This document shows, one piece after another, positions 1-3,000 of a stretch of DNA of 6,056 bases (positions are counted from its first letter, which is position 1; every line of letters starts with the position of its first letter). The position numbers are program-made. Source of the DNA: a virus (taxonomy: Duplodnaviria; Heunggongvirae; Uroviricota; Caudoviricetes); IMG/VR virus record IMGVR_UViG_2537561992_000026, positions 1-6,056 of that record; one strand, 5' to 3'.

Positions 1-3000
1 CAAAGGACAATCTTAAGTCCACGCAGATGATGAGCGTGATTGACGCCATTGGTGAAGGGCCGATTGAAGGTCCGGTGAAGGGGCTGCAGAGTATTCTGGT
101 GAACAAAACCCCGCTGACGGACACGGACGGTAATCCTGTGATACATGGTGTGACAGCGGTCTGGCGCGCCGGGGAGCAGGAGCAGGCACCGCCGGAAGGT
201 TTTGAGTCCTCCGGCTCTGAAACCGCACTGGGCGTGGAAGTGACGAAGGCAAAGCCGGTGACGCGCACCATTACGTCCGCGAACATTGACCGCCTGCGGG
301 TCACCTTCGGGGTGCAGTCACTGGTGCAGACCACCTCACAGGGTGACCGTAACCCGGCATCCGTCCGCCTGCTGATTCAGCTGCAGCGTAACGGTAACTG
401 GGTGACGGAAAAGGATGTCACCATTAACGGCAAGACCACCTCACAGTTCCTCGCCTCGGTGATTCTGGATAATCTGCCTCCCCGCCCCTTTAACATCCGG
501 ATGGTCAGGGAGACGGCGGACAGCACCACGGACCAGCTGCAGAATAAGACGCTCTGGTCGTCATACACCGAAATCATCGATGTGAAACAGTGCTACCCGA
601 ACACGGCGATTGTGGGGCTGCAGGTGGATGCGGAGCAGTTTGGCGGTCAGCAGATGACGGTGAACTACCATATCCGCGGTCGCATCATCCAGGTACCGTC
701 AAACTATGACCCGGAAAAACGCACGTACAGCGGCATCTGGGACGGCAGCCTGAAACCGGCATACAGCAACAACCCGGCCTGGTGCCTGTGGGACATGCTG
801 ACTCACCCGCGCTACGGCATGGGAAAACGTCTGGGGCGCAGACGTGGACAAATGGGCGCTGTATGCCATTGCGCAGTACTGCGACCAGACGGTCCCGGAT
901 GGTTTCGGGGGCACAGAGCCGCGGATGACCTTTAATGCGTACCTGTCACAACAGCGTAAGGCGTGGGACGTTCTCAGTGATTTCTGCTCGGCGATGCGCT
1001 GTATGCCGGTATGGAACGGCCAGACGCTGACGTTCGTTCAGGACCGCCCGTCGGATGTGGTGTGGCCGTACACCAACTGCGATGTGGTGGTGGATGATAA
1101 CGGCGTGGGGTTTCGCTACAGCTTCAGCGCCCTGAAGGACCGCCACACGGCGGTGGAGGTGAATTACACCGACCCGCAGAACGGCTGGCAGACCTCCACG
1201 GAACTGGTGGAAGACCCGGAAGCCATACTGCGCTACGGGCGCAACCTGCTGAAGATGGATGCGTTCGGTTGCACCAGTCGCGGTCAGGCCCACCGTGCCG
1301 GGCTGTGGGTGATAAAGACCGGACTGCTGGAAACGCAGACGGTGGATTTCACGCTCGGGTCACAGGAGCTGCGTCACACACCCGGTGACATTATTGAAAT
1401 CTGTGATAACGACTATGCCGGGACCATGACCGGCGGACGTATCCTGTCCATCGATGCCGCCAGCCGCACCCTGACACTGGACCGTGAGGTGACCCTGCCG
1501 GAGACAGGTGCCGCCACGGTGAACCTGATTAACGGCAGCGGTAAGCCGGTGAGCGTGGCCATCACTGCACACCCCGCGCCGGACCGGATACAGGTCAGCA
1601 CCCTGCCGGATGGCGTGGAGACATACGGTGTGTGGGGACTCTCCCTGCCGTCACTGCGTCGTCGCCTGTTCCGCTGTGTTTCCATCCGGGAAAACACGGA
1701 CGGTACCTTTGCCATCACGGCAGTGCAGCATGTGCCGGAAAAAGAAGCCATTGTGGATAACGGGGCCAGCTTTGAGCCACTGTCCGGTTCGCTGAACAGC
1801 GTCATCCCGCCGGCAGTACAGCACCTGACGGTGGAGGTGAGCGCGGCTGACGGTCAGTATCTGGCACAGGCGAAATGGGACACGCCGCGGGTGGTGAAGG
1901 GTGTGCGCTTCAGTCTGCGCCTGACCAGCGGAAGCGGAGAAGACAGCCGTCTGGTGACCACCGCCATCACTGCGGATACAGAGCACCGTTTCAGTGGTCT
2001 GCCGCCCGGGGAATACACCCTGACAGTCAGGGCAATTAACAGTTATGGCCAGCAGGGCGAACCGGCCACCACCACGTTCAGGATTAATGCACCTGCGGTA
2101 CCCGCCACGATTGAGCTGACACCGGGCTATTTTCAGATAACAGCGGTCCCGCGTCTTGCGGTGTATGACCCGACGGTACAGTTTGAGTTCTGGTTTTCGG
2201 AGACAAAAATCGCAGACATATCTCAGGTGGAAACCTCTGCCCGTTATCTGGGGACCGGCAGTCAGTGGAGTGTATCCGGCCCGCACATTAAGCCCGGGAA
2301 GGATTTCTGGTTTTACGTGCGCAGCGTCAACCTGGTGGGGAAATCTGCGTTTGTGGATGTCAGCGGGCAGCCCAGCAATGATGGTGAAGGGTATCTGGAA
2401 TTTTTCCGGGAAAAAATAGGAAAACTGCATCTGGCTCAGGGGCTGTGGGAGCTGATAGACAACAGCCAGCTTGCGGATGAGATGGCGGAGATGAAGACCA
2501 CCATCACCGAAACCCGCAATGAAATCACACAGACGGTCAGTAAAACGCTGGAGGACCAGAGCGCCACCATACAGCAGATACAGCGCGTGCAGAAGGACAC
2601 AAATGATGACCTTGCTGCACTTTACATGCTGAAGGTACAGAAAACAAAAAATGGCATACCCTATGTTGCCGGGATTGGAGCGGGGATTGAGGATACTGAT
2701 GGCCAGCCACTGAGCAACATACTGCTGCTGGCTGACCGTATCGCGATGATAAATCCGGAGAGCGGCAACAGCACGCCGTTATTTGTGGCGCAGGGGAATC
2801 AGCTGTTCATGAACGACGTGTTCCTGAAGCGACTGTTTGCGGTGAGTATCACGTCATCCGGCAACCCCCCGACGTTTTCCCTGACGCCGGAAGGGAAGCT
2901 GACAGCCAGGAACGCGGATATCAGCGGAGCAATTACCGCGAATACCGGCACGCTCAATAATGTCACCATTAACGAGAACTGTGTCATCAGAGGGAAACTG

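Follow-up and report, generated by a model that had tools for sequence, protein, structure and literature searches.

A split host specificity gene J on a draft contig of a lambdoid prophage is probably a consensus error

Given that the lambda-like host specificity gene J is divided between two reading frames in the sequence analyzed here, the question arises whether the break is a mutation carried by the bacterium or a fault of the deposited sequence. The window, a stretch of 6,056 nt, is the entire contig ADUN01000183.1 of the draft assembly GCA_000188755.2, as found by exact-product look-up, and it is colinear with the end of the late region of a lambdoid prophage (Table 1). The contig starts 40 nt into J and finishes within IS600, so that it is bounded by multi-copy sequence on both sides. 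Some caution is needed in using it, as at face value it describes a prophage without a receptor-binding tail tip and without both fibre genes. We contend, with a probability of roughly 0.8 and on the basis of sequence comparison, that the split in J is a consensus error, made in base-calling or in assembly of the draft contig, and not a bacterial mutation.

The gene is an ordinary lambda-type J under either reading. Every Pfam domain is found well over its cut-off, FNIII-A_GpJ in the first fragment and Phage-tail_3, Ig_J, Ig_J_second, Phage_Tail_Tip and Ig_GpJ_C in the second, and the same series of domains is present in lambda gpJ (PDB 8iyk, 8xcg and 9e7m) and in the J proteins of O26, O111 and O103 EHEC prophages. 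The lambda-like identity assigned to the gene in the original prediction is confirmed by these domains and by the gapless alignment to lambda gpJ that follows repair. The order J, lom and tail fibre is that of lambdoid EHEC prophages, the downstream genes lying in the window and the upstream tail genes L, K (C40) and I being present in L003 and L004, two relatives of near-identical sequence. The nearest relatives are non-O157 EHEC prophages, among them those in strains 2010C_3902 and OkiPb01675, which show 99.6% identity to the window across positions 1-5735.

Table 1. Features of the window and single-base differences from its intact relatives, in order of position
Feature or change	Position	Strand	Basis or consequence
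gpJ (tail tip attachment / host specificity protein), native residues 15-292	3..836	+	Frame 3; gapless lambda gpJ match from residue 15; Pfam FNIII-A_GpJ
Lesion GGGGCG, against GGGGGCGG in intact relatives	833..838	+	Alignments; two 1-nt G deletions, net -2
Deletion of G (G5 to G4)	833		J frame break
Deletion of G (GG to G)	838		J frame break
Remaining gpJ, frame 1, native residues ~293-1150	835..3411	+	Translation, Pfam, gene call
Out-of-frame tail of J fragment 1, 32 unrelated codons and TAA	837..935	+	Without counterpart in lambda gpJ or relatives
Second J frameshift, inserted A	3412..3447	+	Comparison with relatives
Insertion of A (CCACGG to CCAACGG), 2 nt past A6 run	3412		Last 8 J codons shifted
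J-lom spacer, T6ATT to T5AT	3469..3481	.	Two 1-nt T deletions
Deletion of T (T6 to T5)	3474		Intergenic
Deletion of T (TT to T)	3480		False ATG, called Lom lengthened
lom (Ail/Lom outer-membrane beta-barrel), intact	3503..4126	+	
lom-fibre spacer, T7 to T6	4168..4179	.	Also in relative L005
Deletion of T (T7 to T6)	4174		Sole indel common to a relative (L005)
Side tail-fibre gene (N-terminal-domain type, collagen-like repeats)	4191..5514	+	Frameshifted by T inserted at 5114
Insertion of T	5114		440-aa fibre gene frameshifted
Small tail-fibre C-terminal gene	5516..5735	+	Frameshifted by A inserted at 5539; IS600 cuts 15 codons
Insertion of A, 5 nt past A7 run	5539		Small fibre gene frameshifted
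IS600 (IS3 family), left end and start of orfA (5798-)	5734..6056	+	Two further indels at contig end
Insertion of A	~6046		IS600
A7 to A6	Contig-final A-run		IS600

Homology to J runs in a frame-3 open reading frame (27..935) up to GMGKRLG, the last codon of which is 834-836, and beyond this point the frame reads unrelated codons (...DDL) until a TAA at 933-935. Frame 1 takes up the homology at 835 (GADVDKW...) and stays open until 3447, the gene caller's second J product being 840 aa long with its start at the ATG at 925. The original prediction had described a GGGG run at 833-836, which the sequence bears out, and a switch of frame at this run, with which both translation and Pfam agree; the residues that it regarded as out of frame past 836 proved foreign to J. 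Its estimate of a truncation about 300 aa into a protein of about 1150 aa was likewise close, as the break falls after residue 292, and J has 1158 aa in the relatives. As deposited, the gene is thus without an uninterrupted frame, being broken here and again at 3412, eight codons before the stop, whereas J is intact in lambda and in the EHEC relatives.

Comparison with the relatives defines the nature of the break. Intact relatives read CGT CTG GGG GCG GCA GAC GTG GAC (R L G A A D V D) at this site and the window reads CGTCTGGGGCGCAGACGTGGAC; the codons of LGAAD (CTG GGG GCG GCA GAC, as in lambda) are represented in the window by CTGGGGCGCAGAC, and the relatives' CGTCTGGGGGCGGCAGAC is aligned against CGTCTGGGGCGCAGAC. 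The lesion consists of two separate 1-nt deletions, one that shortens G5 to G4 and a second, 5 nt downstream, that shortens GG to G (CGGC to CGC); together they amount to -2 and appear as a shift into the following frame. A single contiguous deletion was considered as well, and it cannot turn GGGGGCGGC into GGGGCGC; no contiguous removal of 2 nt makes CTGGGGCGCAGAC from CTGGGGGCGGCAGAC, and the same applies to the change from T6ATT to T5AT between J and lom.

The simplest explanation offered at the outset, one extra G in the run, does not agree with these comparisons, since the relatives carry G5 and not G3, lambda has LGAAD at this place, and the run is one base short. Shortening the run to ctgggc, the repair that had been suggested, restores the frame but gives LGAD, with one alanine fewer than in lambda and in all relatives. 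This seemingly obvious one-base repair is therefore incorrect, and the correct one, in which two Gs are added, becomes visible only because relatives were compared. With both Gs restored, the protein reads LGAADVDKW, aligns without gaps to lambda gpJ over residues 15-602 (1064 bits; PDB 8iyk and 9e7m), is colinear with it across the break and shares with it an identical stretch of 17 residues, and it differs from the J of L003 by only three amino acids. One continuous J frame that matches lambda gpJ without a gap is thus obtained through the addition of two bases and not through the removal of one.

The original prediction left two alternatives, real pseudogenisation and a homopolymer sequencing error, and both stand, but it overlooked that the 6-kb contig carries ten single-base indels, those of the break among them, a context that tips the choice towards sequence error. 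Eight of these indels occur over the first 5,735 bases, against 15-17 substitutions in comparison with L003 and L004 at 99.6% identity, and two more lie in the 323-nt stretch of IS600. All of the large open reading frames are affected, J twice and both tail-fibre genes, and the indel at 3412 exchanges the native C-terminus of J, KKSTAGISIS*, for another end of 14 letters. The indels are concentrated in and beside homopolymers: seven of the eight lie in, or at most 8 nt from, a stretch in which their own base is repeated five times or more, a placement that applies to 1.1-1.8% of position/base combinations in the background (binomial P ~1e-12). The T at 5114, inserted after GGGG, is the only indel without a homopolymer of its own base nearby. 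The two pairs of deletions are moreover alike in form, G5-C-GG having become G4-C-G and T6-A-TT having become T5-A-T.

Linked miscalls around homopolymers are a product of base-calling in flow-based or uncorrected long-read chemistries, and we infer that the pattern on this contig is what such chemistries give and that the indels arose in sequencing and not in the cell. Replication slippage alters the run itself; it neither shortens an adjacent run of one or two nucleotides as well nor inserts a further copy of the base some positions on. The true sequence would then be CTG GGG GCG GCA GAC, which would encode an uninterrupted lambda-type J of 1158 aa; the G5 run would have been under-called as G4, and the next run, GG, one base further on, would have been under-called as G. 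Errors of three forms would recur on the contig, namely a long homopolymer read one base short, a following short run of the same base that is likewise short, and an additional copy of the base called a few bases later. The limits of the contig in multi-copy J and IS600 are a setting of poor consensus quality. Judged from these comparisons, J and the fibre genes are probably intact and it is the assembly that is wrong. The WGS projects with ADU* accessions of about 2011 are presumably 454 drafts, which was not used as evidence.

A similar picture is given by the homopolymer errors of draft and long-read assemblies, which appear at NCBI as 'frameshifted' pseudogenes and in which 1-nt errors likewise fall in or beside runs, several per gene and within one assembly. 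The assemblies of 16-9255, 99-3311 and SMN152SH1 are of this kind, with the same G5 to G4 call and a J with many other deletions in runs. In contrast to these, the assignment made for the present contig is drawn from the pattern of its indels, and that pattern includes two insertions and one event outside homopolymers. Private substitutions and the T at 5114 speak against the error reading, as they go beyond pure homopolymer error.

Real pseudogenisation would imply a defective prophage hit by IS600, with strain-specific frameshifts in J and the fibre genes and without a tail tip, and we regard it as unlikely. It draws on a further mark of decay on the contig, the IS600 left end (TGAGGTAGCCTGAG...), which joins ...GTAAGACCGC in the small fibre gene at 5734, with loss of the last 15 codons. 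The junction has the look of a real insertion, although it occurs in none of the 5,426 complete E. coli genomes, and the prophage may therefore be defective and free to decay; with IS600 in the neighbouring fibre gene, relaxed selection on J is plausible. In the relatives, IS600 lies further downstream in nleG or within an unrelated Stx-type prophage. The only record with a 100% two-piece match to the junction, L012, was rejected as an orthologous prophage, being a short-tailed Stx-type prophage without J. Cryptic and defective lambdoid prophages likewise have insertion sequences in a tail-fibre gene and broken frames in J and the fibre genes, and were the lesions real, the contig would represent another defective lambdoid prophage in attaching-and-effacing E. 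coli, which is commonplace.

The numbers and the form of the indels are nevertheless difficult to reconcile with natural decay. In E. coli, substitutions exceed indels roughly tenfold or more, whereas some 8-10 indels stand here against about 15 substitutions at 99.6% identity, far from natural mutation. Pseudogenisation would also require two pairs of independent same-base deletions, 5-6 nt apart, and several indels that lie in runs of one or two nucleotides beside the long runs and not inside them. IS600, which has many identical copies, carries two indels here as well. Both the ratio of indels to substitutions and the paired deletions beside homopolymers thus set this contig apart from the cryptic and defective prophages that it otherwise resembles.

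The distribution of the lesions in public sequences bears on the same alternative. Both G deletions together were found in no copy among 4,893 homologous places of the 5,426 complete E. coli genomes, and they are absent from IMG/VR, the GTDB representative genomes and the JGI metagenomes. All 40 exact IMG/VR matches to a 36-mer across the site are to its intact form, with none in IMG/VR to the single-deletion form, and about 99.8% of the E. coli places are intact. The three indels at 3412, 3474 and 3480 do not occur jointly in any record, as judged from 819 places searched with a 131-nt stretch, for which the best match, at 97.7%, corresponds to three indel differences, confirmed in relatives L003-L005. 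Likewise, in complete E. coli genomes none of 5,238 homologous places has the T at 5114, and none of 3,883 has the A at 5539. The lesions are therefore private to one assembly, with flanks otherwise identical to many genomes, and this absence from the public sequences searched counts against pseudogenisation. The products that result for J and Lom are recorded on ADUN01000183.1 alone (exact look-ups with the 302-, 840- and 215-aa products). Exact look-ups found nothing for the J fragment with a GTG start (844..3447), for the fibre fragment of 376 aa or for the Lom of 207 aa, because the gene caller picked other starts.

As to whether related strains share the indel, the double deletion was found in no related isolate or independent assembly, but G5 to G4 alone occurs in eight complete-genome records (of 1,852 records), among whose carriers are 2012C-4606, O157 PV15-279, SMN152SH1, O121 16-9255, O145 RM12581 and 99-3311. 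Several of these copies carry other faults: J of O121 16-9255 is annotated as eight pieces, at least 16-9255, 99-3311 and SMN152SH1 have many more 1-nt deletions in runs of G, C or A within J, a mark of assembly error, and 2012C-4606 has 'frameshifted' tape-measure and C40 genes beside J. Assemblies thus mis-call the G5 run repeatedly. In O145 RM12581 and O157 PV15-279, G5 to G4 is seemingly the sole unpaired indel in the conserved part of J, a comparison that is blurred by many compensating indels and by the divergence of the references in the variable regions of J. Because of these compensating indels, the other records are only partly usable as clean natural examples. Three O145 records (RM12581, RM13514 and RM8995-C1) have G5 to G4 at equivalent positions, which may be a real inherited frameshift, and it is probable that the run also undergoes genuine slippage mutation in nature. 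The eight records, including the three from O145 in which inheritance looks likely, and the private substitutions in lom are in this respect on the side of pseudogenisation.

It can be speculated that the double deletion is real and that the G5 run (codons 291-292) is a recurrent natural inactivation point in lambdoid J, hit independently in O157, O145, O121 and the present strain, with EHEC and EPEC prophages silencing their tail tips and keeping their effector cargo. We consider this quite unlikely; if it were true, the strain would hold a unique, IS600-marked and multiply frameshifted remnant.

Another possibility, a sub-type of assembly error that overlaps with the consensus error favoured here, is a chimeric consensus of collapsed, near-identical lambdoid prophages, in which reads from several prophages of the strain would have been merged and both the indels and the odd substitutions would stem from the alignment of mixed copies. 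Where a complete E. coli genome has a match, the median is three J copies and the maximum 14, and the contig is bounded by J and IS600. The 3' end of lom has substitutions at 4066, 4108 and 4115, and no complete genome has all three; through that at 4115 the conserved C-terminal GIGYKF becomes GIGHKF, and the C at 4066 matches other lom paralogues, a hint that copies from paralogous prophages are mixed in the consensus. Intact reference copies, however, differ from each other by substitutions and in-frame blocks and not by 1-nt homopolymer indels, and the linkage of the indels to homopolymers favours base-calling over the mixing of copies, so that the collapse of paralogues is a very improbable source of the break.

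Functional recoding or phase variation, in which J would be turned on and off at a slippery G-run or would depend there on ribosomal frameshifting, is effectively excluded, because thousands of homologues are in frame. The break is indeed located at a G-run, and the length of this run varies in 8 of 1,852 records. Nearly all relatives and lambda nonetheless read through the site in one frame, the run is merely 4-5 nt long, the shift (-2/+1) is without an X XXY YYZ heptamer, and a second, unrelated deletion is involved.

Under either reading the locus is of little biological interest past a warning on assembly GCA_000188755.2, and the effects of the indels extend to the genes downstream of J. 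The ATG at 3479, created by the change from T6ATT to T5AT, adds eight codons to lom, the called product of which has 215 aa against 207 aa for the native protein (start at 3503). When repaired, the side tail-fibre gene encodes 440 aa with three differences from L003; in the public gene call it is overlain by a spurious antisense open reading frame of 369 aa (4414..5523), called because the indels disturbed the gene caller. In IS600 orfA, the inserted A changes GATATATT to GATATAATT (6040-6056), and the final A-run is A6 against the canonical A7. In elements of the IS3 family, programmed frameshifting has its slippery site at an A AAA AAG tract of this kind.
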